From Candidatus Omnitrophota bacterium (GTDB lineage: Bacteria > Omnitrophota > Gorgyraeia > Gygaellales > JAQTUX01), in the NCBI GenBank assembly GCA_028707125.1, contig JAQTUX010000001.1:269639-333638 (forward strand): a stretch of 64,000 nt of DNA. The letters run 5' to 3'. This document shows, piece after piece, positions 6,933-44,179 of this stretch (positions are counted from its first letter, which is position 1; every line of letters begins with the position of its first letter). Both the position numbers and the translations under genes were made by a program. The notes under the pieces were generated by a model, which saw only the letters and a program-made list of their open reading frames with translations, was not told the origin of the DNA and ran no database searches.

Positions 6933-7709
6933 ATGTCCGGTTATTTTCTGAGGCTAATCAAGGCGCGGCATATTCTGCGAAGCATGGTCCTGAAGAACTT
7001 GAAGGACAAATATGTCGGCTCAACACTGGGTATCTTCTGGGCGGTGATAAACCCCCTGTTGATCATGTCGGCCGTATCCTTTGTTTTCACTCAGGTGATG
7101 CAAACCCCGATACGGCGCTACCCGCTGCTGGTATTAAGCGCCTACCTTCCCTGGAATTTCTTCGTTAACTCCGCCACTGAAAGCGCCGCCTGCATAAGGC
7201 AGAATCAAGGCATACTCTCTCAATACACCATCCCCCGCGAGGCCATACCCGTATCAGTCGCGCTCGCCGATTTCCTGAACTTTTTATTCGGATTCGCGGC
7301 GATGCTGCCGATATTCATCTTCATGAACAGGGGGGCCGCGGGATGCCTGTGGCTGCTGCCTTTGGTAATGGCCCTGCATCTGGCATTCACCGTCGGGATC
7401 TCCTTATTGTTCAGCATCATCAATATATATTTCAGGGATTTTTCCCAGCTCCTGGGAGTGGGAATGCTGTTCTGGTTCTGGGTCACGCCGGTCTTCTACA
7501 CCCTGGAGATGATGCCTGCCGGCCTTCGCGGGGCATTCCTGGCCAACCCCGCCACATGCTATACGGTTATTTACAGGGAATTATTATATAACGGCCGCTG
7601 CGGCGGCATATCCATGTGGGTATTGGCCGTTATCTTCGCTTTGGCGAGTTTGGCGGGTGGATACATCTTATTTGCCGCCAAAGAAAAGGATATCCTCAAG
7701 CATATTTAG
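6933..7709 (+). CDS. wzm: ABC-2 type polysaccharide/polyol-phosphate export permease (Wzm/TagG-like)
   Basis: 258 aa with ~6 hydrophobic segments. The N-terminal LKNLKDKYVGSTLGIFWAVINPLL motif is typical of ABC-2 permeases. It sits immediately upstream of the cognate ATPase. Confidence 0.85.
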   Translation: MSGYFLRLIKARHILRSMVLKNLKDKYVGSTLGIFWAVINPLLIMSAVSFVFTQVMQTPIRRYPLLVLSAYLPWNFFVNSATESAACIRQNQGILSQYTIPREAIPVSVALADFLNFLFGFAAMLPIFIFMNRGAAGCLWLLPLVMALHLAFTVGISLLFSIINIYFRDFSQLLGVGMLFWFWVTPVFYTLEMMPAGLRGAFLANPATCYTVIYRELLYNGRCGGISMWVLAVIFALASLAGGYILFAAKEKDILKHI

Positions 7710-13588: not shown

Positions 13589-13593
13589 AAGAT

Positions 13594-15798
13594 ATGAAGA
13601 TATCATTGGTAAATCTGCCCTGGAGGAGTTTTGGCAGGGAGGGGGTGAGGGCTGGTTCCCGCTGGCCGCATTTGAAGGCCCGCTCGGAGAAAGAATATCT
13701 GCCTTTCCCCTTTTTTCTCGCCTACGCGGCGGCGCTGCTTAAAAAGAACGGATTTAACGCGCGGCTCATTGACGCCATCGCCAGCGGCCTGTCTTACAGG
13801 CGGTTTTCGCGCCGGATGCGCTCCAGCCGCCCCGACATCCTGGTCTGCGAGACGTCCACGGTGACCCTCAAGCATGACTTGCGGGTCCTGAAGGGCCTGG
13901 GGAGCAAGGCGGAGATCATCCTTTGCGGCCCGGATGTCAATATCCGCCGGCCGGATTTTCTCAGGGAGAACGGATTTATAAAATATGTGCTGTCCGGAGA
14001 ATATGAATTTACGCTCCTTGAACTGCTGCAGCATCTTGATGAGGGCCGCGGCCTTGATGAGGTAAAGGGGATCATATACCGCTCTAACGGCGGCGTGAAG
14101 ATCAATCCCGCGCGGCCCCTGGTTGACCTGGACCGCCTGCCCTGGCCTCTGCGCGAAGGCCTGCCGATGTCGCGTTACAACGATGCCCCGGGAGACATAC
14201 CCATACCGTCGGTGCAGATGATGGCCTCACGCGGCTGCCCGTTTCGCTGCAAGTTCTGCCTCTGGCCGCAGGTGATGTATCAGGGCAGCCATTACAGGGC
14301 CAGGAGCGTCGTGGACGTCGTTGATGAAATGGAATACCTGGTCAGGAATTCGGGATACAGGTCGGTCTATTTTGACGACGATACCTTTAACTGCGGCAAA
14401 GAAAGGATGCTCGGCCTCTGCGCTGAGATCAAGAAGAGGGGCCTGAATATCTTCTGGGCGATAATGGCAAGGGCCGACCTGATGGATGAGGAGATCCTGG
14501 TGAATATGAAAGAGGCGGGGTTGTTTGCCGTCAAATACGGCGTGGAATCCGCCGATAACTCCCTGTTGGACAATATCAATAAGGGTATGTCGCTTGAAAA
14601 AACAGAGGCCGTCATCAAGATGACCAGGGCGCTGGGCATCAAGACCCACCTGACCTTTACCCTGGGCCTTCCGGGAGAGACCAGGCAGACCATAAAAAAG
14701 ACGGTTGATTTCGCCTTAAAGGCCGATCCGGAATCGCTTCAGTTTTCCCTGGCTACGCCGTTTCCGGGAACGGAGTTCTACAGGGAGATGAAGGAGAACG
14801 GCCGGATAATCTCCGCTGATTGGGCAAGATACGATGGAAGCCGCAGCAGCGCGCTCGCCTATGACGATCTCTCCGCGGGCGAGCTTGAGCGCGCCATGAG
14901 GTCGGCTTACAGGCGGTGGGCAATGCACCGTTTGAAAAGGGCCCGTTTTGACCGATTGGGGCTAAAGGCGTATTGCCGCTATTCCCTTGTCAATTCAATA
15001 AATAGCAACGGAATTGTCATGACCGCTTATAAGGTTTCGCGGTTTGCTTTCAGGTACGCGCTTATGCACGTGAGGGAGGCGTTGGTGTCCTCGCCCCGTA
15101 AGATTGAAAACATCGCGCGGGAAAAGGGGTTGAAACTGGGAAGGATGTCCCTGGTCCCGGACGGCCGCGGCCTGAGTTTGTTCTGGGGCGGCCTCAAGTT
15201 GACCCGCGGACGCGGATTTTACAGCTTTCTAAATTTTGAAGGCGCGGATAACGGCAGCGACGGCGCGCTTAAATGGGACACGCAGAGGCCGGACGCGGGC
15301 AGCATTATATTGAGGCGCCTGTATGACGGCGCCGGCATTGAGGAGATATGGAAGATAACCGCGCTGGATGAAAAGCAGATCGGCTGGGACGTGGATATTG
15401 AAATAAAAAAAGAGACGGGTGTGCGGCAGGAAGATATCGGCCTGGCGCTTACGCGCAAATACCGCAAGTGGATAGAAGAATGGGGCGAGGGCAGGTTTCC
15501 CCCTTTGAACGATTACCGCGAAGTTGAGCTCAGGAACGCGCGCAGCGCCGTTGTCGGCGTAAGGGGCAGGAGGGCATTGAGGAATACTCTGCCCACGGTC
15601 CTGCTTGACCTGTCCGCCGGCAATAACGGTTTTCTCCCGTCGGTAGGGAACTCGGCAGAAGGGCATCACGGCCGCCTGCTCGGGGTCAGGCTCGCGCGAG
15701 GGGCCCGCGTCCGCAGATACGCCGCCGGAAGGCACAGGTTGTTGTCGGCCAGGATAAAGATAGTGGAAGAGGATTTCGCGAAGGGCGGGCGAAGATGA
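13594..15798 (+). CDS. B12-binding-domain (class B-like) radical-SAM protein with one C-terminal copy of the Wzt-extension module
   Basis: The ATG at 13594 (MKISLVNLPW) is preferred to the track start at 13516, which overlaps the upstream gene. Rossmann-like N-terminal domain (DILVCETST...IILCGPD...VLSGEYE), ASRGCPFRCKFCLWP, and a module at ~15150-15790 (LSLFWGGLKLTRGRGFY...LPTVLLDLS). Confidence 0.85.
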   Translation: MKISLVNLPWRSFGREGVRAGSRWPHLKARSEKEYLPFPFFLAYAAALLKKNGFNARLIDAIASGLSYRRFSRRMRSSRPDILVCETSTVTLKHDLRVLKGLGSKAEIILCGPDVNIRRPDFLRENGFIKYVLSGEYEFTLLELLQHLDEGRGLDEVKGIIYRSNGGVKINPARPLVDLDRLPWPLREGLPMSRYNDAPGDIPIPSVQMMASRGCPFRCKFCLWPQVMYQGSHYRARSVVDVVDEMEYLVRNSGYRSVYFDDDTFNCGKERMLGLCAEIKKRGLNIFWAIMARADLMDEEILVNMKEAGLFAVKYGVESADNSLLDNINKGMSLEKTEAVIKMTRALGIKTHLTFTLGLPGETRQTIKKTVDFALKADPESLQFSLATPFPGTEFYREMKENGRIISADWARYDGSRSSALAYDDLSAGELERAMRSAYRRWAMHRLKRARFDRLGLKAYCRYSLVNSINSNGIVMTAYKVSRFAFRYALMHVREALVSSPRKIENIAREKGLKLGRMSLVPDGRGLSLFWGGLKLTRGRGFYSFLNFEGADNGSDGALKWDTQRPDAGSIILRRLYDGAGIEEIWKITALDEKQIGWDVDIEIKKETGVRQEDIGLALTRKYRKWIEEWGEGRFPPLNDYREVELRNARSAVVGVRGRRALRNTLPTVLLDLSAGNNGFLPSVGNSAEGHHGRLLGVRLARGARVRRYAAGRHRLLSARIKIVEEDFAKGGRR

Positions 15799-17114
15799 AG
15801 AGCGGCTCACGCTGGGTGAAGTTCAGGGATAGGCTGAAAAACAGCGGCCTGAAGGATACGCTGAGGACGGCTATGCTGGAATTGAGGCCCGGGCGTTTTT
15901 TCGGGGATTATCTTGATGTGCTGGGGGTGCTGGACGGGCTGCACGCTTATAAAGGCCCGGAGTTCGCCCAGATAGACCTTACCAACGACTGTAATAATAA
16001 TTGTATCGGCTGCTGGTGCAATTCGCCGCTTCTCGGAGACAAAAGGATAAGGTCCGGTGATAAAAGGCGGACACTGTCCCTTAAAAGCGTGCTGAAACTT
16101 CTTGATGAGTTGTCCGCCATGGCCACGCGCCATATTTATTATGCCGGCGGCGGCGAACCGTTCATGCACCCCGATATTATGGAGATACTCAGATACACAA
16201 AGCGGAAAGGGTTTGTCTGTTACGTAAATACCAATTTTACCCTGCTTGACGAAGAGAAGATAAGGAAGATCGTAGATTTGAAGGTTGATCATCTGACCGT
16301 GAGTGTCTGGGCGGCAACGCCTGAGGCCTACTGCTTCACGCACCCCAACAAGGAGGGGGCGGATTTTCTGAGGATAAAGGAGATGCTTTCGCTGCTTAAC
16401 CGGATCAAGCGCGGATACCCGGTAGTCAAACTATACAATGTGATCTTCAATATGAATTACCATGAGCTTTCCGCCATGGTGGATCTTGCCGCGGACACGA
16501 ATTCAGAGGCGGTTGAATTCACGGTCATCGATACCATCCCCGGCAGGACGGATAAGTTGTTGTTGAACCCCCAAGAGCGCAGCGCGTTGTTGGAGGAATG
16601 CAGGAAGATTGAACAGCGCAGCGCGAACGCGCATCTTCGGCCGCGGCCGCAGATAATGAATTTGCGGCAGTTCGCGCGCCGGATCGAAAACGCGGCCTCC
16701 TCAAGCGCCGAATATGATTCAGATGTGATCGGCAGCATGCCTTGCTACGCCGGATGGGCGTTCACGAGGATACTGGCCGACGGCAGCGTGAATTCCTGCC
16801 TGAAATCCCACCGTTTCCCCGTGGGCAATATCCGCCAGGAGAGCTTCAAGAAGATATGGAACGACAGGCGCCAGAGGTATTTCAGAAGGAAGGCCTACCA
16901 TCTGGATAGATCGGACCCCTTTTTCAAGATCATAGGCAACGACCCTGATTCGGCAATGGGCTGCTATAAAAGCTGCGATAATCTCGGACATAACATGGAG
17001 ATGCACGGCAAGATGTCCGCTTTGAGCGCCCGCCAAAGAAGATGGCTTGAACGCGCGGCAGGGATCATGAAGTCAGGGCGCAGATATTACTACGGAATGG
17101 CCGGAGGTAAATAA
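15795..17114 (+). CDS. Radical-SAM/SPASM-like protein, 'CxxxCxxCW' subfamily
   Basis: DLTNDCNNNCIGCWC, GGGEPFMH, C-terminal CYAGW...DGSVNSC...PVGNIR...CYKSCDN. Homologous to the catalytic halves of 10415..13588 and 39966..41636. ATGA start/stop overlap. Confidence 0.85.
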   Translation: MKSGSRWVKFRDRLKNSGLKDTLRTAMLELRPGRFFGDYLDVLGVLDGLHAYKGPEFAQIDLTNDCNNNCIGCWCNSPLLGDKRIRSGDKRRTLSLKSVLKLLDELSAMATRHIYYAGGGEPFMHPDIMEILRYTKRKGFVCYVNTNFTLLDEEKIRKIVDLKVDHLTVSVWAATPEAYCFTHPNKEGADFLRIKEMLSLLNRIKRGYPVVKLYNVIFNMNYHELSAMVDLAADTNSEAVEFTVIDTIPGRTDKLLLNPQERSALLEECRKIEQRSANAHLRPRPQIMNLRQFARRIENAASSSAEYDSDVIGSMPCYAGWAFTRILADGSVNSCLKSHRFPVGNIRQESFKKIWNDRRQRYFRRKAYHLDRSDPFFKIIGNDPDSAMGCYKSCDNLGHNMEMHGKMSALSARQRRWLERAAGIMKSGRRYYYGMAGGK

Positions 17115-18169
17115 TGGAAAAGCTGAAGCCCGGGTTCTGCTGCCCCGGGATAACCGATGACTGCATGCTGCGCTGCCGGATGTGCGACAAATGGAAGGCG
17201 GACAAGAACACCTACGGCAGGCCGCGCCCCACGCTCGAAGAGTGGAAGAGGGCGGCCACGCAGCTCAGGGAGCTGGTGGACGAGGGATTTGAGATAGATA
17301 TTGGTGGAGGAGAAGCCCTGCTGGTGGACTGGCTCTGGAGTTTTGTGCGGCATTGCGCGGACAGCGGTTTCAGGGCGACCATAGCCAGCAACGGATACCT
17401 GGTTGACGAGGAGATGGCCAGGAAGATCGCCGGCTCCGGGCTTTCCAGCATCATCTTTTCTTTGGACAGCTTGGACCACCGGGTCCATGATTATTGGCGC
17501 GGCAGGCAGGGCGTCTATGACCGGGTGATGCGGGCTATTGAGAATGTGGCGCGCTTTGCCCCTGATGTGCACATAGGCATTTGCAGCATCATAATGGAAA
17601 ATACCCTGGCAGGAATGGTCAAGCTGGCTAAATGGGTAAACAAGGACCCGCGGCTTAAATCGGCCTATTATATGGTGCCGATGCAGCCCAACAATACTTA
17701 CTGGGGCAAGGATGGTTTTGATAAATACTGGTTTAAGTCAAAGGAATACGGATTCTATTGGCCGCAGAATACCGCTAAGGTATTAAAGGTCATAGATGAG
17801 CTTATCCGCAGGCGCCGGGCAGGAGAGTTGATCGGGAATACCGTTGTCCAGCTTGAGGCCTATAAGAATTATCTGGCGCATCCGGAGCGTTTCGTGAAAA
17901 CCGCCCCCTGTAATCTTGACCGCGCCCTGCACATCAGTTCTGTGGGAGATATATTTTTATGTTATAACTGGCCGTCCCTGGGCAACATCAGGAATAAGGA
18001 AGACGACCTGCGCGAGATCTGGTTCTCGGAAAAGGCCGAGGCAGCAAGAAAGAATATCAGGGAATGCAGGGAAAACTGTCATTTCCTGTTGAACTGTTTC
18101 TTTGAAGGGGATTACCCCTTTACCACGGTGGATGAACATAAGCAGGCGTCAATTTTAGAAAAGACATGA
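17114..18169 (+). CDS. SPASM/twitch-type radical-SAM paralog P1
   Basis: FCCPGITDDCMLRCRMCDKW (C-x7-CX3CX2C-xxW), GGGEAL, SNGYLVDEEMARKIAGSGL, SLDSLDHRVHDYWRG, PCNLDRALHISSVGDIFLC (C-x11-G-x4-C), SLGNIR, CRENCHFLLNCFFEGD. Confidence 0.85.
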   Translation: MEKLKPGFCCPGITDDCMLRCRMCDKWKADKNTYGRPRPTLEEWKRAATQLRELVDEGFEIDIGGGEALLVDWLWSFVRHCADSGFRATIASNGYLVDEEMARKIAGSGLSSIIFSLDSLDHRVHDYWRGRQGVYDRVMRAIENVARFAPDVHIGICSIIMENTLAGMVKLAKWVNKDPRLKSAYYMVPMQPNNTYWGKDGFDKYWFKSKEYGFYWPQNTAKVLKVIDELIRRRRAGELIGNTVVQLEAYKNYLAHPERFVKTAPCNLDRALHISSVGDIFLCYNWPSLGNIRNKEDDLREIWFSEKAEAARKNIRECRENCHFLLNCFFEGDYPFTTVDEHKQASILEKT

Positions 18170-19176
18170 TCGTGAAGCCGAAATTCTGCTGCGTGGCGGC
18201 TACGGATTACTGTATGCTGCGCTGTAAAATGTGCAATAAATGGCAGGAGAGGTCCCCCCGGCCCGACGAGGTCCCTTCCCTGGATGAGTGGAAGAACTTT
18301 ATCGCCGCTTTCAGGGAGCTGGTGGACGAGGGTTTTGAGATGGATTTCGGCGGCGGCGAGGCGTTGTCGCTGCCGGGCATCCTGGAACTTGTAAAATTCG
18401 CCAAGGGCAGGGGCTTCCGTACCACCCTTGCCTCCAATGGCTATCTTATAGATAAAGAGATGTCCAGAAGGATAGCCGACTCCGGCCTTGATGCGGTCAG
18501 CCTGTCTCTGGACAGCCCTTATCCTGAAGTCCACGATAAGATGCGCGGCGTAGAAGGTGTTTATCAGCGCGTAATGGCCGCGCTGGATAATCTCTCTTTA
18601 TATTCCCCTTCAACCAGAAAGGGCCTTTGCTGCATAATTATGAATGAAAATATGGACAGTTTGATACGGCTGGCTGATATGGCTGATAAAGACCCCCGCG
18701 TTGACTGGCTTTATTTTATGTCGGTGGTCCAGCCCAATTACAGCGGCCCGCTGGACAGCGCCTGGCGCGATGAATACAGCTATCTTTGGCCGCGGGATAC
18801 CAGGCGGCTGCAAGACATAATAGATGAGTTGATACGCAGGAAGGCTGACGGCTCAAAGGTGAGCAACCGGCCCGAGCACCTGCGCGCCTACAAGGCCTAT
18901 TTCGCCGACCCAAAGACGTTTGTGAACAAGGCGAAGTGTATCGTGGGCGGGGCGGCGATAAGTGTGAATACCTACGGCTTCATTCAGCTTTGTTTTTTCA
19001 TGGATTTTATCGGCAACATCAGGAAGGATGATATCCGCAAACTCTGGTATTCTCAGGGCGCGGAGTCGGTAAGAGGCAAGGTAGGCGCCTGCAAGGCCAA
19101 TTGCCATCTGCTTCTTAATTGCTGTTATATAGAAGACGATCCCGAGTTATATTCCGTAAATAATGAAAGCCGTTAG
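18166..19176 (+). CDS. SPASM/twitch-type radical-SAM paralog P2 (closest to P1)
   Basis: FCCVAATDYCMLRCKMCNKW, GGGEAL, SNGYLIDKEMSRRIADSGL, KCIVGGAAISVNTYGFIQLC, IGNIR, CKANCHLLLNCCYIEDD. Shares a ~35-nt near-identical stretch with P1 (agggagctggtggacgaggg.tttgagat.gat). Confidence 0.85.
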   Translation: MIVKPKFCCVAATDYCMLRCKMCNKWQERSPRPDEVPSLDEWKNFIAAFRELVDEGFEMDFGGGEALSLPGILELVKFAKGRGFRTTLASNGYLIDKEMSRRIADSGLDAVSLSLDSPYPEVHDKMRGVEGVYQRVMAALDNLSLYSPSTRKGLCCIIMNENMDSLIRLADMADKDPRVDWLYFMSVVQPNYSGPLDSAWRDEYSYLWPRDTRRLQDIIDELIRRKADGSKVSNRPEHLRAYKAYFADPKTFVNKAKCIVGGAAISVNTYGFIQLCFFMDFIGNIRKDDIRKLWYSQGAESVRGKVGACKANCHLLLNCCYIEDDPELYSVNNESR

Positions 19177-20449
19177 ATTCTGGCTTGTGTCGCTATTTGC
19201 CGCCGCCGTATTGCTGGAGGCGGTATTAAGGGTTTCCGGGTCCGCGTATGCCGGGGCTCATTGGTTGAGGCAGGGCCTGTCAAGAGGCAGCCAGGGCAGG
19301 CCTTTTACCGTACTTTGCCTTGGTGATTCTTTTACCTTCGGCGTAGGCGCCGCCGCCAAAGACAGCTATCCGGCGCAATTGCAGCGGATGCTGCAGGGCA
19401 ACGGAGAGAAAGGATTCCTGATAATTAACGGCGGACGGCTGGCGAATACTTCTTCTCTGCTCCTGGAAAATCTGCGCTCCGACCTGGATACTTACAGGCC
19501 GGACTTGCTGGTGATCATGGTCGGCTGTAATAATTATTGGAATCTCCGCGGCAGCAGCTATTTCCATCTCAAGGGCGAAGGCGCGGGATTCCGGCAGAAA
19601 CTGGACAGCGTAATGAGCAACCTGCGTTTCTACCAGGCATGTAAGATAGGTTATTTGAATCTGAAGTCAAGATTGAATAACCGGCGCAGGCAGCCGGATA
19701 TTGCCGGCGTCCCCGATATGAAGGCGCGGCGGATAGACCCTGACGCTGACCGGCTGGTGGTGGAAGCGCAGAAGCTATACGAAACAGGCGAGTACGCGCT
19801 TTCAAGAGAAAAGTTGGACGAGGCGCTGGCGAGGGACGAATTCAGCCACCGCGCCCATTTCTTGTCGGCCATGCTGCTGAATATAGAAGGCAATGATACG
19901 GCGGCAAGGGATGAGCTCTGGCGGTCTCTTCAGGCGGCCAGGGAAACCGGCGAATGGGACGGCGGTTTCTTTTGCAATATTATTAATATTTGTTTACGGA
20001 TTGAGAAAGACATCCCCGCGCAGCGAAGGCAGTTGTCAAAGATGAGGGAGTTCGCGGCGCTGCACGCGCCGCCCGATAAGAAACAGGATATCCTTTCGCT
20101 CTTGGACGCGAAGGCAGGGCTGTTGGATGATAATAGCGATATGTATGAGGTCGCGAGGTTTGATATCGGACGGGTCGCCGGCCTGGCAAGGCAGCGTGGC
20201 TGCGCGGTCATACTCCAGACATACCCGGCAAAAAGCGATCTGAATTCAATGTTAAGACGGGTGAGCAAAGAATACGGCCTTGTTCTGGCAGATAATGAAT
20301 TATTCTTTGAAGAGAGAGGCAGAGAAGGCCCGTTAGGGGATCTTTTCGTGGCTGACGGCCACTGTTCAGCTGCCGGGTATAATTTGATCGCCGCAAACGT
20401 CTACGCGGCATTAGCCGATAATGGCTATATCAAAAATGCGAAAAGATAA
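19163..20449 (+). CDS. Membrane-anchored SGNH/GDSL-like hydrolase or acyl-esterase with an inserted TPR-like helical region (SGNH-TPR 1)
   Basis: N-terminal anchor MKAVRFWLVSLFAAAVLL. Block I VLCLGDSFTFGVG, block II INGGRLANTS, block III LLVIMVGCNNYWN, block V FVADGHCSAAGYNLIA. A ~200-aa helical insert sits between blocks III and V. Confidence 0.7.
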   Translation: MKAVRFWLVSLFAAAVLLEAVLRVSGSAYAGAHWLRQGLSRGSQGRPFTVLCLGDSFTFGVGAAAKDSYPAQLQRMLQGNGEKGFLIINGGRLANTSSLLLENLRSDLDTYRPDLLVIMVGCNNYWNLRGSSYFHLKGEGAGFRQKLDSVMSNLRFYQACKIGYLNLKSRLNNRRRQPDIAGVPDMKARRIDPDADRLVVEAQKLYETGEYALSREKLDEALARDEFSHRAHFLSAMLLNIEGNDTAARDELWRSLQAARETGEWDGGFFCNIINICLRIEKDIPAQRRQLSKMREFAALHAPPDKKQDILSLLDAKAGLLDDNSDMYEVARFDIGRVAGLARQRGCAVILQTYPAKSDLNSMLRRVSKEYGLVLADNELFFEERGREGPLGDLFVADGHCSAAGYNLIAANVYAALADNGYIKNAKR

Positions 20450-21443
20450 TACCGCCTGCGTTCCACGTTATTGCTGCTGGGTGATAAATTACCGCTGTAT
20501 GCTCAGGTGCAAGATGTGCCATATCTGGAATACCGATTATGATCCGGCGCAGGAAACGACCATGGAGCAGAAGAAGCGGCTGGTGAGCTCGTTGAAGGGC
20601 GTGGTGGAGCCGGGTTTTGAATTTCATCTTTCAGGGGGCGAGCCCTTGATCAGCGAAGGCATACTGGAGCTGGTGGATTTTATCGCCGATCAGGGCTATA
20701 AGACAAACCTGGTTACCAACGCCTTCCTCATTGACGAGAGAATGGCGCGGGATATTGCCGCGTCTTCTCTGGGGACCCTGACCATTTCCCTGGACGGGAT
20801 AAAAGCCGAGACGCACGATTTTATCAGGGGCGTAAACGGCAGTTACGAGAGGATAATGAAGGCGATCGGATATGTTGATAAATTCAGGAAAGGCGATGCG
20901 CCGCGCATTTCTATCCTGACCACAATTATGGAGCGCAATATTGATGAGCTTTTGCGATTAGCGGATTGGGTGCAGAGCGACAGGCGGCTGGAGATGATCA
21001 GCTTTCAGGCCATAACCCAGCCGTTCTGCGAGGAGGCGGATCAGGCCTGGTTTACAAGGGAGAAAAACCGCGCGCTCTGGCCGCAGGACGCGGAAAAGAC
21101 AGCGGCCGTTATGGATAAATTGGAGCAGCTGAAGCGGCAGGGCCGCAAGATCGGCAACCACCCGGACCACTTCCGCCATTTCGGGGAATATTTCAGATCG
21201 CCCGATACGTTCTTGAAGAAGATAAAATGCAACCTCGGCGATTATGAGTTCCACATTGACCCATACGGCAAGGTCTTCTTCTGTTGCCTGGTTGAACCCA
21301 TCGGCAATATCAAGTCAGACGATACGGCGAATATCTGGTTTACTCCCAATACCGCCAGGATCAGGCAGGAGGTTTATAACTGCCGTCGTAATTGCCATAT
21401 CATGATCAACTGTTTCTATGAAGAAGAGAAATCCGCTGCTTGA
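20421..21443 (+). CDS. SPASM/twitch-type radical-SAM paralog P3
   Basis: YCCWVINYRCMLRCKMCHIW, SGGEPL, SLDGIKAETHDFIRG, KCNLGDYEFHIDPYGKVFFC, PIGNIK, CRRNCHIMINCFYEEE. Confidence 0.85.
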   Translation: MAISKMRKDNTACVPRYCCWVINYRCMLRCKMCHIWNTDYDPAQETTMEQKKRLVSSLKGVVEPGFEFHLSGGEPLISEGILELVDFIADQGYKTNLVTNAFLIDERMARDIAASSLGTLTISLDGIKAETHDFIRGVNGSYERIMKAIGYVDKFRKGDAPRISILTTIMERNIDELLRLADWVQSDRRLEMISFQAITQPFCEEADQAWFTREKNRALWPQDAEKTAAVMDKLEQLKRQGRKIGNHPDHFRHFGEYFRSPDTFLKKIKCNLGDYEFHIDPYGKVFFCCLVEPIGNIKSDDTANIWFTPNTARIRQEVYNCRRNCHIMINCFYEEEKSAA

Positions 21444-22488
21444 TTTATTATTTCCGGGAAAGATGAGGCCTGCTCCGGCATTCTGCCTTCTGGTCGTCTC
21501 CAAGGCATGCACGTTCAGATGCAAGATGTGCAATATGTGGAAGAGCGCTGGGCGCAAGATAGACAGGAAGGAGCTTACGCTTGATGAGATAAAGGGCTTT
21601 GTGGATGACCTGAGGAATGTCACCACCGAGCCGATATTTATCCACCTCATCGGAGGCGAGGCGTTGTTGAGGAAAGACCTGATGGAGATCATCGCCTACA
21701 TCAGGAAAAGGGGATTCAACGCCTCTATCACGACAAACGGATATTATATAGACGAGGAGATGGCCGGGAGGATCGTGGCCTCGGGCCTTACCGGCATATT
21801 CCTATCCCTGGACGGTTATAAGGAACAGACCCATGATTATCTCCGCGGAGTTGAAGGCAGCTACAAAAAGGTGATGGATGCCATAGAGCTGCTGGACCGG
21901 TATCGCGGGACCGATAAGTCCAACCGGCTGAGTATAGGGATCACCACGACGTTGATGAATAGAAATCTGGATGAGGCGCTTGATCTGGAGCGATGGGCAA
22001 ACGCCAACGACAAGATAAACGATTTTTTCATCAACGCCTGCCTGCAGCCGTTTGACTGCGACGGCTATGAGCGCGACTGGTATAAGAACAGCAAGAACAG
22101 CGATGTCTGGCCGCAGGATATAGCTAATGCCTGCGATGTCCTGGAAGAGTTGGCGCTGCTTAAGGAAAAAGGGCATAAGATCTGCAACCCCCCTGAACAG
22201 CTGCGCCTGGTAAAGGAGTACTTCCGCAATCCCTACAGGTTCATTCACGACAGCCGGCTGAAATGCCCGAGGGGAGACCTGGCGCCGGAGATAAACGCCT
22301 ACGGAGACATAAATATGTGTTTTTATATGGAGCCGCTCGCCAACATCAGGGACAGGAAATTTTCCGAGGTCTGGTCTTCCCGGATGATGGATAAGGCCAG
22401 AGAAGAGATCAACAGCTGCAAAAAGGACTGCGATATCGTAGTCAACTGTTTCTACAAAATAGAGAATATAGCCGATAGCCGTGCTTAA
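21418..22488 (+). CDS. SPASM/twitch-type radical-SAM paralog P4
   Basis: FCLLVVSKACTFRCKMCNMW, IGGEAL, SLDGYKEQTHDYLRG, KCPRGDLAPEINAYGDINMC, PLANIR, CKKDCDIVVNCFYK. Confidence 0.85.
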   Translation: MKKRNPLLDLLFPGKMRPAPAFCLLVVSKACTFRCKMCNMWKSAGRKIDRKELTLDEIKGFVDDLRNVTTEPIFIHLIGGEALLRKDLMEIIAYIRKRGFNASITTNGYYIDEEMAGRIVASGLTGIFLSLDGYKEQTHDYLRGVEGSYKKVMDAIELLDRYRGTDKSNRLSIGITTTLMNRNLDEALDLERWANANDKINDFFINACLQPFDCDGYERDWYKNSKNSDVWPQDIANACDVLEELALLKEKGHKICNPPEQLRLVKEYFRNPYRFIHDSRLKCPRGDLAPEINAYGDINMCFYMEPLANIRDRKFSEVWSSRMMDKAREEINSCKKDCDIVVNCFYKIENIADSRA

Positions 22489-23479
22489 TAAGAAAGAGAA
22501 AATAGCCGCGCCAAGGACCTGCCTTCTGACGGTCACCAACCAATGCTGCCTGCGCTGCCGTATGTGCCGGCTTTGGAAGCTGGATACCATAAAAGACGAA
22601 GTAAACATTGAGGATTGCCGAAAATTCGTTGATGCGCTAGGCGGCTTCGGCCCGGGCCCCATGGAGGTGCACCTTATCGGCGGAGAGGCGCTGACCAAAA
22701 ATGGCATATTTGATCTTATCCGGCATATCAGCGCCAAAGGGTGGCGCACTGTAATGACCTCTTCAGGATATACCATAGACGAGCCGACAGCGCGGGCGCT
22801 GGTTGAGGCGGGCTTAAGCATGTTGAACTTGTCGCTGGAGAGTATGGATCCTTCGGTCCACGACCACTTAAGGGGGCAGGGCGGTTGTTTCAGCCGCCTT
22901 ATGGAGGCGATCCGGCATCTGGGCAGGCATAAGAATGATTCTTTTAAGCTGGGCATTAATTCCGTTATTTCCGCGGCCAATCTGGAAGATATCGCTGAGT
23001 TAGCAGAGTGGGTGCAGGGTAACGACATCCTGGATTCCATTTATTTTATGGCGGTTATGCGGCCTTTCGGCTCAGGGGCGGATTGGGATTGGTTTAAGCA
23101 GGAGGAATACCGCCATTTGTGGCCTTCAGACCCGGCAGGCGCAGGTCGCGTTCTGGACCGGCTTATCCGTTTAAAGGAAGGCGGCTCCTCTAAAATAGAA
23201 AATCCCGCCGGACAGCTGGAGTCGTTTAAGTCATATTTCCGCGACCCGTCCCATTTTATAAGATCCAACCGCTGCAATGTTTCGGAACAGGCGGTTAACG
23301 TCAACGCAGTAGGCGATATGTATATCTGTTTCTTCATGGAAAAACTCGGCAATATCAGGACCGACAACGTCGTTGAACTCTGGTATTCGGAAAAGGCCGA
23401 TGAGATACGCAGAAAGATGCGCGCCTGCAGGAGCAACTGCGAGCTGGTAGTGAACTGCTATTATGAAAATGAGCGTTAA
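22481..23479 (+). CDS. SPASM/twitch-type radical-SAM paralog P5 (GTG start)
   Basis: TCLLTVTNQCCLRCRMCRLW, IGGEAL, SLESMDPSVHDHLRG, RCNVSEQAVNVNAVGDMYIC, KLGNIR, CRSNCELVVNCYYENE. Confidence 0.85.
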   Translation: MLNKKEKIAAPRTCLLTVTNQCCLRCRMCRLWKLDTIKDEVNIEDCRKFVDALGGFGPGPMEVHLIGGEALTKNGIFDLIRHISAKGWRTVMTSSGYTIDEPTARALVEAGLSMLNLSLESMDPSVHDHLRGQGGCFSRLMEAIRHLGRHKNDSFKLGINSVISAANLEDIAELAEWVQGNDILDSIYFMAVMRPFGSGADWDWFKQEEYRHLWPSDPAGAGRVLDRLIRLKEGGSSKIENPAGQLESFKSYFRDPSHFIRSNRCNVSEQAVNVNAVGDMYICFFMEKLGNIRTDNVVELWYSEKADEIRRKMRACRSNCELVVNCYYENER

Positions 23480-24455
23480 AAAACCGGATTCCTGCTCCAT
23501 AGTCCTTCTTACAAATTGTCTCCTGAAGTGCAGGATGTGCCGGATGTGGAAGTCAACTGATGATCCGATGCGGGTCTCCACACAGCAGTGGAAGGCGTTT
23601 ATAAGTTCGCTTGACGGCCTGCTGGGAGGCCCGCGGGAACTTGTTTTCAGCGGAGGCGAGCCGCTGCTCAGGAAGGACATCCTGGAACTGATCAGGTTCG
23701 GGACGGACAAGGGCTTTAAGACGCTTATGCCTTCCAACGGCTATCTTATAGACGGGGATATGGCAAGGCGCATAGCCGATTCCGGCCTGAAAGAGATATT
23801 TATCTCGCTGGACAGCGTTGATCATGAAACGCACGACTTTTTAAGGGGCGTTGACGGCGCGCACAAAAGGGCGATGTCGGCATTTGACAATCTGCGCAAG
23901 CACTGCCCCGGCCTGAAAATAGGGATAATAACGGTGATATCGGGGCGCAATTATGCCGAAGTTGCCGGGGTGGCCAGATGGGTAAAGGATACCGGTTTTA
24001 TAAGCGGCGTATATTTTCAGGCCGTCGCAAAGCCGTTTTTTGCCACGTTAGGCGATGATTGGTACAGGCAGGAGCCCTACGCGTTACTCTGGCCCGGGGA
24101 TACCGCGAAGATGCTTTCCGCCATCGACGAGCTTATAGCGATGAGAAAATCGGGTTTTCCCATCCATAATTTCCCGCTTCAGCTGGAGATATTCAAGGCG
24201 TATTTTCAGGACCCGCAGAAACGCGCCAGAAGGTCAAGGTGTTATGCCGGCGACTATGTGGTCAATCTTAATCCCGCGGGAGACATATCTCTGTGCTGCT
24301 TTATGGAGCCGTTGGGCAATATAAGCAGCGACGACATCGGAGAGTTATGGTTTTCCCAAAAGGCGCAGGGTATGAGGCAGAGGATGCGTGAATGCGATGT
24401 CAATTGCAATAACATGGTAAATTGTTTCTTTAAAGAAGACGAGGAGGCCGGATGA
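23463..24455 (+). CDS. SPASM/twitch-type radical-SAM paralog P6
   Basis: SCSIVLLTNCLLKCRMCRMW, SGGEPL, SLDSVDHETHDFLRG, RCYAGDYVVNLNPAGDISLC, PLGNIS, CDVNCNNMVNCFFKEDEE. Confidence 0.85.
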   Translation: MKMSVKKPDSCSIVLLTNCLLKCRMCRMWKSTDDPMRVSTQQWKAFISSLDGLLGGPRELVFSGGEPLLRKDILELIRFGTDKGFKTLMPSNGYLIDGDMARRIADSGLKEIFISLDSVDHETHDFLRGVDGAHKRAMSAFDNLRKHCPGLKIGIITVISGRNYAEVAGVARWVKDTGFISGVYFQAVAKPFFATLGDDWYRQEPYALLWPGDTAKMLSAIDELIAMRKSGFPIHNFPLQLEIFKAYFQDPQKRARRSRCYAGDYVVNLNPAGDISLCCFMEPLGNISSDDIGELWFSQKAQGMRQRMRECDVNCNNMVNCFFKEDEEAG

Positions 24456-25522
24456 AGCCGGGCAGCAGGGATTCTTTTTTCAGCCGGCTTAAGGAGCGGA
24501 TAGAAAAGACCGGCTCAGGAACGGGCAAGCCGTTTTTCTGCGACTTATTGATCTCGGAAAAATGCAATTCCCGCTGCAGGACATGTTATTTCTGGAAGAA
24601 TGGCATAGAGGAGCGTTTGACGCTTGAGGAATGCAAGGGCTTTATCAGCGGCTTGAGCGGCCTGGCGGCGGCGCCTTTTGAGATAAACCTGGGAGGCGGC
24701 GAACCGCTGTTGAATGAAGGCATTCTGGAGCTGGTTAAGCATTGCCGCCGGCTTGGTTTGCAGCCGACAATATCCACTAACGCGATGTTGATAGACGGAG
24801 ATATGGCCAGAAGGTTGTCGGAGAGCGGGCTGCACAGATTAAGCCTGTCCTTAAAGGGATTTAGTGAAAAGACGCACGATTTTCTCACTGGCGTAGACGG
24901 CTCATACCGTAAGTTTATGGCCGCGCTTGAACACCTGAGGCGGTATTGGCGGGGCAAGGATCTAAATATCCATACAATTATATTGGAACAGAATCTTGAT
25001 GAAATAATCGGGCTTACGGAATGGGTAAATAAAGACGATCTTTTTACCGGCATAGCTTTCCAGGCGCTTTCCCAGCCCTTCCGCACTGATCAGGTTGATA
25101 ACTGGCATACAGGCGGTGAATACAGCTATCTCTGGCCCGGGGACAGCCATAAAGTCAATTCCGTGTTAGACGCGTTAGTAGAATTTAAGTCGTCGGGTTA
25201 CCGCATCCTGAACCCGCTGCCTCAACTGCTGATCTATAAGAGGTATTATCAGGATCCCGGGGCATTCGCCCGGGTGCACCGTTGTAATTCCGGTGATTAT
25301 ATTTTTAATGTCAACGTGCTGGGGCTGGTGCATCTTTGCTGCTTTATGCAGCCCATCGGAAATATAAATAAGAGCGATATTAAGGCGATATGGCATTCCA
25401 GAGAGGCGGCCTCAACAAGAGAGGCGATGCATAACTGCCAGAAGAGCTGTAACAACATCTTGAACTGTTATTTTCAGGAAGAAGGCGATGAAGGCGCGGG
25501 AAGCGACGCTGAAAAGCTGTGA
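24452..25522 (+). CDS. SPASM/twitch-type radical-SAM paralog P7
   Basis: FCDLLISEKCNSRCRTCYFW, GGGEPL, SLKGFSEKTHDFLTG, RCNSGDYIFNVNVLGLVHLC, PIGNIN, CQKSCNNILNCYFQEEGDE. Confidence 0.85.
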   Translation: MKPGSRDSFFSRLKERIEKTGSGTGKPFFCDLLISEKCNSRCRTCYFWKNGIEERLTLEECKGFISGLSGLAAAPFEINLGGGEPLLNEGILELVKHCRRLGLQPTISTNAMLIDGDMARRLSESGLHRLSLSLKGFSEKTHDFLTGVDGSYRKFMAALEHLRRYWRGKDLNIHTIILEQNLDEIIGLTEWVNKDDLFTGIAFQALSQPFRTDQVDNWHTGGEYSYLWPGDSHKVNSVLDALVEFKSSGYRILNPLPQLLIYKRYYQDPGAFARVHRCNSGDYIFNVNVLGLVHLCCFMQPIGNINKSDIKAIWHSREAASTREAMHNCQKSCNNILNCYFQEEGDEGAGSDAEKL

Positions 25523-26531
25523 TCTGATACTTACGCATTGCTGCAACTTGCGGTGCAAGATGTGCTATTTATGGGACCGCCGTGAGTACGGCAATAAAGA
25601 AGGGCAGTTGGGCTTAGAAGAGTGGAAACGTTTCATCGATGCCCTTGTCCCCTTTTCCGGAAAGGAGCCGATACGCCTGCATTTCGGGGGCGGTGAGCCA
25701 TTTTTGAAAAAAGGTATTTTAGGCCTTGTAAAACACAGCAGCCGGAGGGGATTTACCACGATGACCACCTCCAACGGGTTCCTGCTTGATAAGGGAATGG
25801 CGCGTAAAATAGCCGATTCGGGGTTGTCGCATATAACCCTGTCTTTAGACAGCATGGATGAGCGGGTCCATGACTATATACGCGGGACCAGGGGCAGCCA
25901 TTCCAGGGTCTTGAGGGCGATCGATGTGCTTAGCAGGCAACGCGGGCGCCCGACTATCGGGATAAATTGCATAATTTCGGACATAACACTGGATAGCGTC
26001 ATCCCTATGGCGGAATGGGCCATCAATGACGACAGGATTTCCGGCATTATATTCCAGGCGGTTGTCCAGCCGTATGAGACGGCGCCCGATGAGGCCTGGT
26101 ATGAACAGGAGAGGTTCGGGGAGCTTTGGCCTCGTGACGGCGGGAAGGTCGGCTCTGTGCTTGAAAAGCTTATCGCTTTAAAGATCCGGGCGCGCGCGGA
26201 TAGAGGCATAGGCGGGGGCGACGGCGATAAGATAAGCAATCCCGTATCCCAGATATCCGCTTTCGCAGAGTATTTCCGCCATCCACGGGAGTTTATACAC
26301 AACAGGCCCTGTCCGCTGGATAGTTCTTCGCTGCTTGTGAATTGGTCCGGGGAGCTGCATTTATGCGGAATGCTGCAGCCGGTGGGCAACGTCAGGCGCC
26401 TTGACCTGAAAGATATTTTGTTCTCAGGGGCGGCCTCGGAAAGGCGGGAGGAGATAAGGTCATGCCGCAGGGGCTGCAATAATAAGGTCAATTGTTTTTT
26501 TAAAGAGGCCGTTGCCGATGATGGAAATTAA
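25488..26531 (+). CDS. SPASM/twitch-type radical-SAM paralog P8
   Basis: SCDLILTHCCNLRCKMCYLW, GGGEPF, SLDSMDERVHDYIRG, PCPLDSSSLLVNWSGELHLC, PVGNVR, CRRGCNNKVNCFFKE. Confidence 0.85.
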   Translation: MKAREATLKSCDLILTHCCNLRCKMCYLWDRREYGNKEGQLGLEEWKRFIDALVPFSGKEPIRLHFGGGEPFLKKGILGLVKHSSRRGFTTMTTSNGFLLDKGMARKIADSGLSHITLSLDSMDERVHDYIRGTRGSHSRVLRAIDVLSRQRGRPTIGINCIISDITLDSVIPMAEWAINDDRISGIIFQAVVQPYETAPDEAWYEQERFGELWPRDGGKVGSVLEKLIALKIRARADRGIGGGDGDKISNPVSQISAFAEYFRHPREFIHNRPCPLDSSSLLVNWSGELHLCGMLQPVGNVRRLDLKDILFSGAASERREEIRSCRRGCNNKVNCFFKEAVADDGN

Positions 26532-27498
26532 AAAACCGATATTCTGCGATATAGGGATCACCGAAAGATGCATGTTCAGGTGCAGGATGTGCAGGTTCTG
26601 GGAGACAGCGGAGAACAGGCCGGAGCTCTCAGGCCGGCAGTGGATAGAGTTTATAGGGTCGCTTAAGGAATCCTGGGGAAACGATATCAGATTGCATTTT
26701 GCCGGAGGGGAGCCGTTATTAAAGGATGGTTTTCTGGATATATTGGACTTCGCCAATGATGCCGGCTTCAGGACTTTTATCGTGACCAATGGCTTTCTTA
26801 TGGATGAGAACATCGCCGGCCGGCTAACGCGTTCCGGCACGGAAGGCATCACGATCTCTCTGGATAGCCTGGACGCGCAAACACATGACTTCCTGAGGGG
26901 CACCAGAGGGGCCCATAGGCAGGCAATAACGGCGATCGGCCATTTAAGGGAAAAAGGCGCCAAAGGCATAACCGTACTCGCGGTGATCATGGGCTATAAT
27001 CTCGGCCATATAATAGAGCTTGCCGATTGGGCGCAGGCCAATGAGCATATAAGCTCCATATATTTCCAGGCGATATCGCAGCCCATTGCCACGGCTAAAG
27101 ACAGCCGGTGGTATGAGAAGGAAGAATTCAGCTGTCTCTGGCCCGGCGACCTGGCGCGCCTTGACTCCGTGATCGAGCGGCTGGCAGATTATAAAAGACG
27201 GGGGTATAAGATATCCAATTCAATAAGCCAATTGGAGATGTTCAAAACATATTTCCGGCAGCCTGAGAGGTTGTTTGAAGGCATGGTGTGCACACAGGGC
27301 GACTACGTGATCTATATCCGCCCCGGGGGCGATGTCCTGCTTTGCGGCTCTATGGCCCCCATCGGGAATGTGAGAGAAAACAGTATAAAAGACCTTTGGG
27401 ATTCCCCTGAGGCTTCCTTGAGGAGGGAGCAGATCCACAATTGCCAGGAGGCCTGCCTTAACGTGATAAATTGTTTCGTAGACAAAGATCTGCCTTAG
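26512..27498 (+). CDS. SPASM/twitch-type radical-SAM paralog P9
   Basis: FCDIGITERCMFRCRMCRFW, AGGEPL, SLDSLDAQTHDFLRG, VCTQGDYVIYIRPGGDVLLC, PIGNVR, CQEACLNVINCFVDKD. Confidence 0.85.
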   Translation: MPMMEIKKPIFCDIGITERCMFRCRMCRFWETAENRPELSGRQWIEFIGSLKESWGNDIRLHFAGGEPLLKDGFLDILDFANDAGFRTFIVTNGFLMDENIAGRLTRSGTEGITISLDSLDAQTHDFLRGTRGAHRQAITAIGHLREKGAKGITVLAVIMGYNLGHIIELADWAQANEHISSIYFQAISQPIATAKDSRWYEKEEFSCLWPGDLARLDSVIERLADYKRRGYKISNSISQLEMFKTYFRQPERLFEGMVCTQGDYVIYIRPGGDVLLCGSMAPIGNVRENSIKDLWDSPEASLRREQIHNCQEACLNVINCFVDKDLP

Positions 27499-28494
27499 TT
27501 GATTATGCGCGCCGCTTACGATAGACCGCGTTTTTGCGACCTCGTCGTCACGGAGAACTGCATGTTGAGATGCCGGATGTGCAGGATGTGGCAGAGCAGG
27601 GCCGGAGGCGATGAGCTGCCCGTCGACGCATGGAAAGGGTTTATCGATTCCTTCGCGGATTTCGCGGGCGGCAATGCCCAGGTGCAGTTTGTCGGGGGAG
27701 AGCCGCTGCTTAAAAACGGGATAACAGGCCTTATCAGCCATGCCCGCAGCAGGGGGCTGGCAACCACCATGACCACCAATGCCTATCTTTTAGACGGGAA
27801 GGCATCCGGTGATATCGCGCTTTCAGGGTTGGGCACGCTGGTCCTGTCGCTGGACAGCCTGAAGGCGCAGGTCCACGATTTTCTGCGGGGACAGGCAGGC
27901 GTCTACGCGAGGGTAATGGCGGCACTGGATTTCTTCAGCAGGCACAAGGATGATCGCCCCCGCCTGCATATAGTCACCACCATAATGCAGCCGGATTTAG
28001 ACGGTGTCCTGGAGCTTGCCGAATGGGCAGAGGCCAACAGGGCGATAGACGCCATAAGTTTTCAGGCGGTGATGCAGCCATTTTTCATGCCGCCGGATGA
28101 TGCCTGGCATGAGAGAGAAGAGTTTGCCTTATTATGGCCGAAGGATGCGGAAAAAATTGACGAGGTCATGGACGGGCTTATACGCCGTAAACGTTCCGGT
28201 TTTAAGATAACCAACCCCGCGGCGCAGTTTGAGGTTTTCCGGTCTTATTTCAAAGACCCCCGGAGATTTGTGAAGGCCTCAAGATGCAATCTGGGGTATG
28301 ACTCGCTGACGGTGAATACGGCAGGCGGCATATTCCTGTGTAATTCAATGGAGCCCATAGGGAATATACGCGACGGGGCGGATATCGCGGAGTTATGGCA
28401 TTCAGAGAAGGCCGAACTCGTAAGGAAGCAGATCGGCGACTGCCGCCGCAACTGCAAGCTTATGATCAACTGTTTTTTTGACGATGAAGGATAA
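27499..28494 (+). CDS. SPASM/twitch-type radical-SAM paralog P10 (TTG start at 27499, or ATG at 27505)
   Basis: FCDLVVTENCMLRCRMCRMW, VGGEPL, SLDSLKAQVHDFLRG, RCNLGYDSLTVNTAGGIFLC, PIGNIR, CRRNCKLMINCFFDDE. Confidence 0.85.
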   Translation: MIMRAAYDRPRFCDLVVTENCMLRCRMCRMWQSRAGGDELPVDAWKGFIDSFADFAGGNAQVQFVGGEPLLKNGITGLISHARSRGLATTMTTNAYLLDGKASGDIALSGLGTLVLSLDSLKAQVHDFLRGQAGVYARVMAALDFFSRHKDDRPRLHIVTTIMQPDLDGVLELAEWAEANRAIDAISFQAVMQPFFMPPDDAWHEREEFALLWPKDAEKIDEVMDGLIRRKRSGFKITNPAAQFEVFRSYFKDPRRFVKASRCNLGYDSLTVNTAGGIFLCNSMEPIGNIRDGADIAELWHSEKAELVRKQIGDCRRNCKLMINCFFDDEG

Positions 28495-44177: not shown

Positions 44178-44179
44178 CA

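Follow-up and report, generated by a model that had tools for sequence, protein, structure and literature searches.

What does a bacterium do with thirteen versions of one radical S-adenosylmethionine (SAM) enzyme encoded in a single operon? We investigated this question in a 64,000-nt stretch of DNA from Candidatus Omnitrophota bacterium (assembly GCA_028707125.1, contig JAQTUX010000001.1, positions 269,639 to 333,638), here called the window, for which an original prediction had described a tandem array of paralogous radical SAM genes. That prediction saw in them one SPASM/twitch-type subfamily of old duplicates, kept functional and non-redundant and so far undescribed, and this core reading was supported throughout the tests that we ran. 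The most likely role of the enzymes, to which we give a probability of roughly 60%, is site-specific radical tailoring of an exported cell-surface glycan, with the enzymes acting at the polymer level.

All thirteen predicted open reading frames (ORFs) of ~330 aa are intact and lie on the + strand at the expected coordinates. Ten of them run head to tail from 17114 to 28494: P1 (17114-18169), P2 (18166-19176), P3 (20421-21443), P4 (21418-22488), P5 (22481-23479), P6 (23463-24455), P7 (24452-25522), P8 (25488-26531), P9 (26512-27498), and P10 (27499-28494). As had been noted, the sole interruption is a gene for an SGNH hydrolase with TPR repeats (SGNH-TPR). P11 (33323-34357), P12 (37990-38991), and P13 (38978-39961), whose start overlaps the P12 stop, lie farther along. 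The array genes overlap within one operon, and the array has no intergenic gaps. The whole window reads as one train of + strand genes. It contains 26 radical SAM genes in all, 13 of them outside the paralog family, in one + strand operon.

The thirteen paralogs form a single subfamily whose kinship reaches beyond generic radical SAM motifs. A profile built from the 13 sequences and run on six-frame ORFs gave bimodal scores that set the family apart, with complete members at or above 250 bits and other complete radical SAM/SPASM proteins (such as the neighboring gene product R439) at or below 136 bits; ORFs cut off at locus ends account for the scores between 136 and 250 bits. Pairwise identity, judged by eye at ~30-40% in the original prediction, measures 30-44% with a median of 36%. 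The "near-identical DNA patches" ascribed to P1 and P2 did not hold up, being just two stretches, 52 nt with 85% identity and 75 nt with 72%. In a MAFFT alignment of the thirteen copies, C9, C17, C21, and C24 (C-x7-C-x3-C-x2-C) are invariant, as are GGE, H125, G130, W206, W216-P217, and C322/C328. Seven motifs had been described as present in every copy. The C-x7-C-x3-C-x2-C and GGE motifs are indeed invariant, but three others have exceptions: motif 4 is deviant in P5 and P11, motif 6 has Met at its Trp column in P2, and motif 7 reads YWPQN in P1. Pfam Radical_SAM (PF04055) matches 13 of 13 copies (best 2.8e-23), and Pfam SPASM (PF13186 / TIGR04085) matches 12 of 13 (best 1.5e-08; P1 scores 31.8 bits against a cutoff of 21.5), P12 being the copy without a match. 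The AlphaFold2 model of P10 has a six-strand beta/alpha core with a predicted local distance difference test score (pLDDT) of 93. With the CxxxCxxC motif, GGE, and this partial TIM-barrel core, the 13 paralogs are members of the radical SAM superfamily.

The family has six cysteines outside the radical SAM motif, five C-terminal and one N-terminal. The full SPASM motif reportedly reads C-x9-15-G-x4-C ... C-x2-C-x5-C-x3-C ... C and holds seven Cys. Its first half is present in the family as C-x12-13-G-x4-C; the second half reads C-x3-C-x5-C, and the fourth and trailing Cys are absent in most members. The nine-Cys signature of the original prediction is kept in 96-100% of members among the orthologs in the sampled loci described below. 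A Cys at position 13 or 14, which is 7-8 residues before the radical SAM motif, is found in ~96% of members; members without the N-terminal Cys have Cys at the adjacent position in 72% of cases, vs 38% for the others. P12 keeps its radical SAM motif and has lost three auxiliary-cluster cysteines (to Y, S, and G), namely both hairpin Cys and the first Cys of C-x3-C-x5-C. This loss is a real inherited variant: of eight P12 orthologs outside the window, four have the same Y-S-G loss, one has two of the three changes, and three have all nine Cys. Because three cysteines are lost together in P12 while the other three auxiliary cysteines are kept, the pattern suggests two separate auxiliary sites, one formed by the co-lost Cys and another by the N-terminal Cys plus the last two Cys.

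We then asked how widely the array occurs. A pattern search of one genome per GTDB species, with a pattern built from a 6-sequence subset of the paralogs, matched 362 relatives, and the best 80 of these gave 59 loci in 37 species-level assemblies for comparison. Nearly all of these loci are from Omnitrophota, with a few labelled Planctomycetia, Patescibacteria, or Margulisiibacteriota. Assemblies have 1 to 16 family copies each (median 6; lower bounds), and at least 13 of the 37 assemblies have 10 or more (10-16). A HMMER scan of 1.84 billion cluster representatives returned 1,965 proteins at E <= 1e-30, the best 150 of which all scored at least 278 bits. P1 is identical to database protein P0007 from an Omnitrophica metagenome-assembled genome, and the window stretch is also present in two Logan assemblies. 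The array is thus a recurrent trait of the Omnitrophota lineage and is not peculiar to the window genome.

The copies are old, and their order is conserved. Long arrays (in L006, L008, L009, L010, L012, L014, L019, L024, and other loci) follow the order P1-P2-P3-P4-P5-P6-P7-(P8)-P9-P10-P11-P12-P13, and identity is 55-82% between each ortholog and its counterpart in the window, vs only 35-45% between that ortholog and any other paralog. The P2 orthologs, for example, are 69-80% identical, and those of P4 reach 82%. In a neighbor-joining tree of 275 sequences, P2, P3, P4, P5, P6, and P9 are each clades at 100% bootstrap, followed by P7 (96%), P10 (94%), P13 (86%), and P11 (76%). The P8 clade has 98% and consists of one assigned sequence and one neighbor. 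P1 (24%), the type found in low-copy loci, and P12 (0%) are unresolved as clades. Compared with its best ortholog, each of the 13 copies has a proportion of nonsynonymous differences (pN) of 0.14-0.30, P12 included at 0.14, and a proportion of synonymous differences (pS) of 0.77-0.92. As synonymous sites are saturated, we state selection as pN << pS and give no numeric dN/dS. The claim that the copies are old and maintained is therefore borne out by collinear 1:1 orthologs in many Omnitrophota genomes and by purifying selection on all 13.

These data bear on one alternative, namely that the copies are interchangeable variants in a diversifying pool, for surface-antigen variation or phage evasion, and not a fixed set. 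The spread of 1 to 16 copies between genomes would suit such a pool, as would the report that polysaccharide cassettes are hypervariable regions in Omnitrophota (bioRxiv 10.64898/2026.06.07.730766). However, species-level genomes share the gene order and the 1:1 orthologs, purifying selection acts on every copy, adjacent paralogs are fused in single proteins, and no recent duplicates or recombination-type repeats were found among the copies and no invertase in the window. We consider a variable pool highly improbable.

Do the paralogs differ where a substrate would bind? Among 326 alignment columns, 37 are conserved within the 11 larger orthogroups yet differ between them, with five or more residues represented. 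In the P10 model, 16 of the 37 positions map to the SPASM hairpin or to one of the six barrel strands (Fisher p = 2e-6), and several have i,i+2 spacing (14/16/18, 61/63/65, 90/92, 113/115, and 157/159). From this spacing we infer their orientation, as pocket residues that face inward from one side of each strand. This placement of orthogroup-specific residues on barrel strands fits different substrate pockets.

Single polypeptides with two full family domains, corresponding to adjacent paralogs, occur in at least 9 loci. P7 is fused with a second full family domain in L016, L017, L019, and L024, and this second domain is P8-like in L017 and L024; the L017 domain is also the best ortholog of P8, at 54% identity. 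In L006 and L019, a second full family domain follows a P12-like domain within one ORF, at the P12-P13 position of the array. Database proteins P0121-P0129 have two or three family domains. One of these, P0121, is 1034 aa long and has three. Because adjacent paralogs are fused in single polypeptides, the sequences argue that paralogs would act together on one substrate.

The genes around the array point to what that substrate may be. Across Omnitrophota, synteny of related loci shows a conserved cassette, Wzm-Wzt(long)-R1057-B12a-R439-[array]-R556-glycosyltransferase, in which genes for TPR-radical SAM, B12-binding radical SAM, and SGNH-TPR proteins are interspersed in the array. In the window, all on the + strand, the cassette begins with a Wzm-like ABC-2 permease (6933-7709; Pfam ABC2_membrane 1e-10), which has homologs in 11 related loci. 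Next is a 903-aa Wzt/TagH-like ABC ATPase (7710-10421), for which TagH and galactan Wzt are the best NCBIfam matches, below cutoff. R1057 (10415-13588) has two N-terminal mutarotase-like domains, a coiled coil, and a radical SAM/SPASM region (Pfam Radical_SAM and SPASM, aa 713-1013). B12a (13516-15798) is a 760-aa HpnJ-like enzyme with Pfam B12-binding and Radical_SAM domains. R439 (15795-17114), a radical SAM/SPASM protein (Pfam) of a different subfamily, lies directly before P1 in synteny and is found in 16 loci at a median identity of 59%. With ABC2_membrane, ABC_tran, Bac_transf, Wzy_C, and families GT1 and GT2 of the glycosyltransferases (GT) all present, the window is an ABC-transporter-dependent glycan export locus.

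Wzt, R1057, and B12a share a ~210-aa all-beta domain without a Pfam match, present three times at the C-terminus of Wzt, twice at the N-terminus of R1057, and once in the C-terminal part of B12a (aa 539-752). The R1057 repeats match the Wzt C-terminus in BLASTP at 2e-15 and score 281 and 300 bits with a hidden Markov model of the domain; the B12a repeat scores 97 bits. In Wzt, it lies where the carbohydrate-binding domain Wzt_C (PF14524) would be expected, and aa 240-903 gave no Pfam match even at E = 1. Across Omnitrophota loci, the domain recurs on these three proteins, and Wzt has as many as five copies. A five-sequence model of moderate confidence (pLDDT 74.7) predicts a galactose-mutarotase-like fold. 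A homologous-protein search with five of the repeats returned no matches. The domain also alternates with family domains in P0127, an open-ended 819-aa ORF on a 2.5-kb Omnitrophota contig, and radical SAM modules may be part of the very long proteins reported for Omnitrophota (P0127, P0121). The shared domain suggests a new way for Wzt exporters and tailoring enzymes to recognize the same polymer.

Additionally, in other Omnitrophota, the family domain is fused to glycosyltransferases. These relatives, 718-1493 aa long, have an N-terminal GT2 domain (PF00535, 81-107 bits), a coiled coil, and a C-terminal family domain (244-295 bits), and most carry another radical SAM/SPASM domain. The coiled coil recalls the WbdD-type chain-length ruler and terminator of O-antigen systems. 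The canonical O-antigen-type locus of one such protein, P0146 (L062, an Omnitrophota metagenome-assembled genome), encodes, in order, a WecA-like GT4, a carbamoyltransferase, Wzm, a Wzt with a genuine Wzt_C, PMT_2, the fusion, two GT1, GT2, GT4, and a radical SAM/SPASM-GT4 fusion. Multidomain proteins in other Omnitrophota, which join GT2, a long coiled coil, and two radical SAM/SPASM domains or, in another case, radical SAM/SPASM and a GT4 domain, include P0146, P0165, P0170, P0197, P0202, P0206, and P0212, as well as the L062 ORFs 10001-13540 and 21904-23540. The family is tied to glycan assembly because of the GT2 fusions, the O-antigen-type locus, and the domain shared with Wzt.

We propose that the 13 enzymes would tailor, in the cytoplasm and by SAM-dependent radical chemistry, the sugar residues of a glycopolymer destined for the cell surface. 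Its assembly would take place at the cytoplasmic face on a polyprenyl carrier, and the Wzm/Wzt pair from the head of the operon would export it. Each paralog, with its own pocket, would carry out one site- or step-specific hydrogen abstraction by the 5'-deoxyadenosyl radical on the nascent, probably lipid-linked glycan, either alone or in hetero-complexes, and the auxiliary cluster(s) would serve in electron transfer or substrate ligation. Candidate outcomes include oxidation, epimerization, decarboxylation, deoxygenation, and C-C bond formation, to which the B12-dependent and HemN-like radical SAM enzymes could add methyl groups. R1057 and B12a may dock on the polymer via the mutarotase-like module, and Wzt may pick the finished product for export through the same module. 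After export, the SGNH esterases and the O-antigen-ligase-like Wzy_C protein would act on the polymer. Three elements of this proposal we infer, namely action on the polymer and not on a precursor, a separate site for every copy, and the type of reaction. The original prediction had left the substrate class unnamed and had suggested one paralog per position or step on a repeating substrate, which is a possible arrangement; the evidence here points to a glycan.

Several observations weigh against this proposal. The enzyme of similar fold with known sugar chemistry, BlsE (cytosylglucuronate decarboxylase of the blasticidin S pathway, PDB 7VOB), is only 17% identical, and the BlsE model (TIGR04466), at a best family E-value of 4.4e-19, gives P1 only 41.2 bits against a cutoff of 400; for these two reasons, the reaction types named above are candidates. 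Nucleotide-sugar synthesis genes were not found in the window. The thirteen enzymes outnumber the ~6-7 glycosyltransferases in the window, so "one enzyme per residue" is no simple map. The GT2-fused proteins are a sister branch that is without the N-terminal extra Cys and has the motif CxxxCxHC. Furthermore, the mutarotase-like fold comes from a moderate model, and such a fold is no proof of sugar binding.

The main alternative within a glycan reading has soluble nucleotide- or nucleoside-sugar precursors as the substrate, with the paralogs forming a BlsE/DesII-like, multi-step radical route to one or a few exotic activated sugars that ordinary glycosyltransferases then polymerize. The proteins are compact at ~330 aa and have no docking domain. 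A window without conventional nucleoside diphosphate (NDP)-sugar modifying genes needs another source of unusual sugars, and the GT2 fusion is also compatible with channelling of a modified donor. However, the mutarotase-like module is common to the exporter ATPase, which meets the polymer in its finished form, to two radical SAM enzymes, and to one family-domain protein, and this points to recognition at the polymer level. Thirteen sequential monosaccharide steps would exceed any known sugar pathway, and a copy number of 1-16 is easier to reconcile with optional decorations than with a linear pathway of obligatory steps. We consider precursors as the substrate rather unlikely; peptide, lipid, and variable-pool explanations are less well supported than this NDP-sugar precursor alternative.

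Known enzyme families did not provide a ready identity. No NCBIfam equivalog model reaches its cutoff for any family copy. The best NCBIfam matches are AhbD and NirJ2 (E-values 2.5e-30 and 3.7e-30), for which P1 scores 59 bits against a cutoff of 500. Membership of the AhbD/NirJ heme family was rejected on these scores, and the general Pfam annotation of the window shows no heme or siroheme genes. Viperin and MoaA were likewise rejected, with scores far below the NCBIfam cutoffs, and anSME-like maturases were rejected as the curated equivalog cutoffs were not reached. Literature searches combining Omnitrophota/OP3 with radical SAM/SPASM, or radical SAM with O-antigen, Wzt, or polysaccharide, found no description of the array and no polysaccharide or O-antigen locus with comparable radical SAM content. 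The suspicion that the family was undescribed thus stands, with no curated NCBIfam model that fits and no paper found that describes the array.

The AhbD and NirJ2 matches raise the question of a lipid substrate, since that family gave rise to the lipid enzyme Hbs, homologs of which are reported in Omnitrophota (bioRxiv 10.1101/2023.10.20.563219). The paralogs would then modify a membrane lipid (a hopanoid, an ether/tetraether-type lipid, or a glycolipid headgroup) in the manner of Tes, Hbs, GrsA/B, or HpnJ, and the neighboring B12a matches the HpnJ model at 272 bits. That score is below the HpnJ cutoff of 578, and all other matches are also far under their family cutoffs. There is no COG4001-like extension, lipid-synthesis genes were not found in the window annotation, and HpnJ itself has a sugar moiety as its target. 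A glycan is also favored by the GT-rich surroundings with Wzm/Wzt and by the GT2 fusions, and lipid modification is very unlikely.

A further class of substrates is suggested by the SPASM domain itself, which is best known from peptide maturases. The paralogs could be maturases of peptides or proteins, either of the anSME type or of the type that acts on peptides that are ribosomally synthesized and then modified post-translationally (RiPPs), with the 2016-aa fiber protein encoded upstream, the TPR proteins, or an unlinked precursor as the target. SkfB is the best PDB sequence match (3e-19), the fiber gene is Ser/Thr/Gly-rich, and TPR domains are fused to the family member P0168. Yet neither the alignment nor the model shows a RiPP recognition element (RRE)-type N-terminal extension, another leader-binding domain, or any other added domain, with the radical SAM motif starting at residues 17-45. 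No precursor-like small ORF was found in the window or conserved in the 59 loci, and the array leaves no room for one; apart from gene fragments, the small-ORF search yielded only a transmembrane micro-ORF ahead of the GT1 gene and, ahead of P1, an ORF that resembles an N-terminal helix. The window annotation has no leader peptidase or peptide-type exporter, the transporter being of the Wzm/Wzt polymer type, and the GT2 fusions and O-antigen-type locus favor a glycan. The fiber protein was rejected as a substrate candidate, as it has zero Cys and no homolog was found in any related locus; several of those loci reach upstream of the Wzm gene. We regard peptide or protein maturation as unlikely.

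Returning to glycan tailoring at the polymer level, we can also sketch a more ambitious version, which we offer tentatively as possible but on balance doubtful. Here, a radical "assembly line" would comprise SPASM-type paralogs, as many as 16 and each site-specific, that operate in hetero-complexes, as the fusions would suggest, together with B12- and HemN-type methylases. The result would be glycan chemistry new to polysaccharides, such as carbocyclic, cross-linked, or multiply deoxygenated/C-methylated residues, and the product would be read by the mutarotase-like module on tailoring enzymes and on Wzt, in place of the Wzt_C cap-binding domain.

How does the locus compare with known systems? 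BlsE occurs as a single copy and belongs to a nucleoside antibiotic pathway, whereas the window family forms an array in a polysaccharide export operon. The family has a conserved six-Cys signature outside the radical SAM motif, including the N-terminal Cys. Canonical SPASM/twitch enzymes (anSME, PqqE, SuiB, CteB, SkfB, and BtrN) have C-x2-C-x5-C-x3-C...C where the window family has C-x3-C-x5-C, so its five C-terminal Cys place it between twitch and full SPASM. Full SPASM domains bind two auxiliary 4Fe-4S clusters, and the twitch subclass (BtrN, MoaA, SkfB), a truncated SPASM with the hairpin Cys pair and one or two more ligands, binds one. It also differs from them in the extra N-terminal Cys, the lack of an RRE, and a glycan rather than a peptide or cofactor context. 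Like ABC-transporter-dependent O-antigen and teichoic-acid pathways, the window combines Wzm and a C-terminally extended Wzt/TagH-like ATPase with an initiating transferase, GT1 and GT2 enzymes, and an O-antigen-ligase-like protein. Unlike in those pathways, three mutarotase-like domains replace Wzt_C, the domain recurs on two radical SAM enzymes, and tailoring is dominated by 26 radical SAM enzymes instead of short-chain dehydrogenase/reductase, aminotransferase, or SAM-methyltransferase chemistry.

The closest parallel in the literature comes from groundwater Elusimicrobia, in which up to 13 radical SAM genes, some with B12-binding or HemN_C domains, lie next to nitrogenase paralogs (NifHDK-like) and were proposed to have a tetrapyrrole or cofactor role (bioRxiv 10.1101/765248). 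In both cases, an uncultured anaerobe has many radical SAM genes, some B12-fused, packed at a single locus, with copy numbers that differ between genomes. By their description, however, the Elusimicrobia clusters contain various radical SAM proteins, while the 13 window paralogs belong to one subfamily and lie in a glycan export operon. Radical SAM sugar chemistry is known from single antibiotic-pathway enzymes and not as the dominant tailoring logic of a cell-envelope polysaccharide, and the array is best read as an enlargement of such sugar tailoring to a battery of 13 paralogs within a polysaccharide pathway. An ordered and conserved battery of at least 13 paralogs, close relatives with probably different pockets, is also a natural panel for studying site selectivity in radical SAM/SPASM enzymes. 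The surface polymer predicted here would be unusual. Omnitrophota, a phylum that is widespread and for the most part uncultured, have very small cells that may depend on hosts, and in such cells surface structures are likely central to lifestyle.

The remaining genes of the operon, from the array to 50121, are also on the + strand. The SGNH/GDSL hydrolase-TPR gene that interrupts the array (19163-20449; Pfam Lipase_GDSL_2 5e-15, TPR_16) is one of four paralogs spread through the operon, the others being at 32047-33357, 41614-42825, and 59398-60798 (the first two of these by Pfam). The two sequences that we read, 19163 and 41614, have an N-terminal hydrophobic segment, and the SGNH-TPR proteins presumably act on the exported polymer. 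Following P10 are a 720-aa TPR-radical SAM gene (28478-30640; Pfam TPR and Radical_SAM) and a 496-aa B12-binding radical SAM gene (30564-32054; Pfam B12-binding and Radical_SAM), the latter conserved in 16 loci. Between P11 and P12 are a 684-aa TPR-radical SAM gene (34348-36402; Pfam) and a 536-aa class-B-like radical SAM gene in which no B12 domain was detected (36383-37993; Pfam; NCBIfam ApyD and PhpK below cutoff). The genes at 28478, 34348, and 36383 are class-B-like paralogs, two of them with N-terminal TPR, and share DNA patches of up to 89% over 119 nt, which points to more recent duplication than in the P family.

R556 (39966-41636; Pfam radical SAM/SPASM), a paralog of the C-terminal half of R1057, closes the radical SAM block and is found in 15 loci at 64% identity. 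After the third SGNH-TPR gene there is a 35-aa micro-ORF with a single transmembrane segment (42875-42982; MRFILTVLLTIAALGMDCFLWLLKRIKKICVFPGG), which ends 1 nt before the start codon of a GT1-family (GT4-type) glycosyltransferase (42984-44177; Pfam Glyco_trans_1_4 3e-27). This glycosyltransferase follows R556 in other genomes and is found in 10 loci at 58% identity. Homologs of the micro-ORF, ending I/VFPGG, occupy the equivalent position in 11 other loci, and it possibly represents a membrane anchor that has split off from the glycosyltransferase. Next are an O-antigen-ligase-like (Wzy_C) membrane protein with C-terminal TPR (44096-46561; Pfam Wzy_C 1e-19, TPR) and a group of two GT2 genes, one GT1 gene, and an initiating phosphoglycosyl transferase (46568-50121; Pfam; Bac_transf 4.7e-60).

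At the left end of the window, the fiber-like protein (129-6179; 2016 aa) is repetitive, cysteine-free, and Gly/Thr/Ala/Ser-rich; it ends in Peptidase_S74, the endosialidase intramolecular chaperone, and its frame is open to the window start. A small ORF of the "23S rRNA intervening sequence protein" family (PF05635; 6257-6655) sits between the fiber gene and the glycan operon, and the 277-nt gap after it is likely the operon start. An Rfam scan of the window found no riboswitch or other RNA. The window tail (50135-64000) encodes a DUF362 Fe-S protein, a 307-aa radical SAM protein, a class-I methyltransferase, a HemN/HemW-like radical SAM protein, a PMT_2 GT-C, and a U32-family protein. Further radical SAM genes in the tail start at 60711, 61781, and 62887, the last of which has a B12 domain and runs off the window end.

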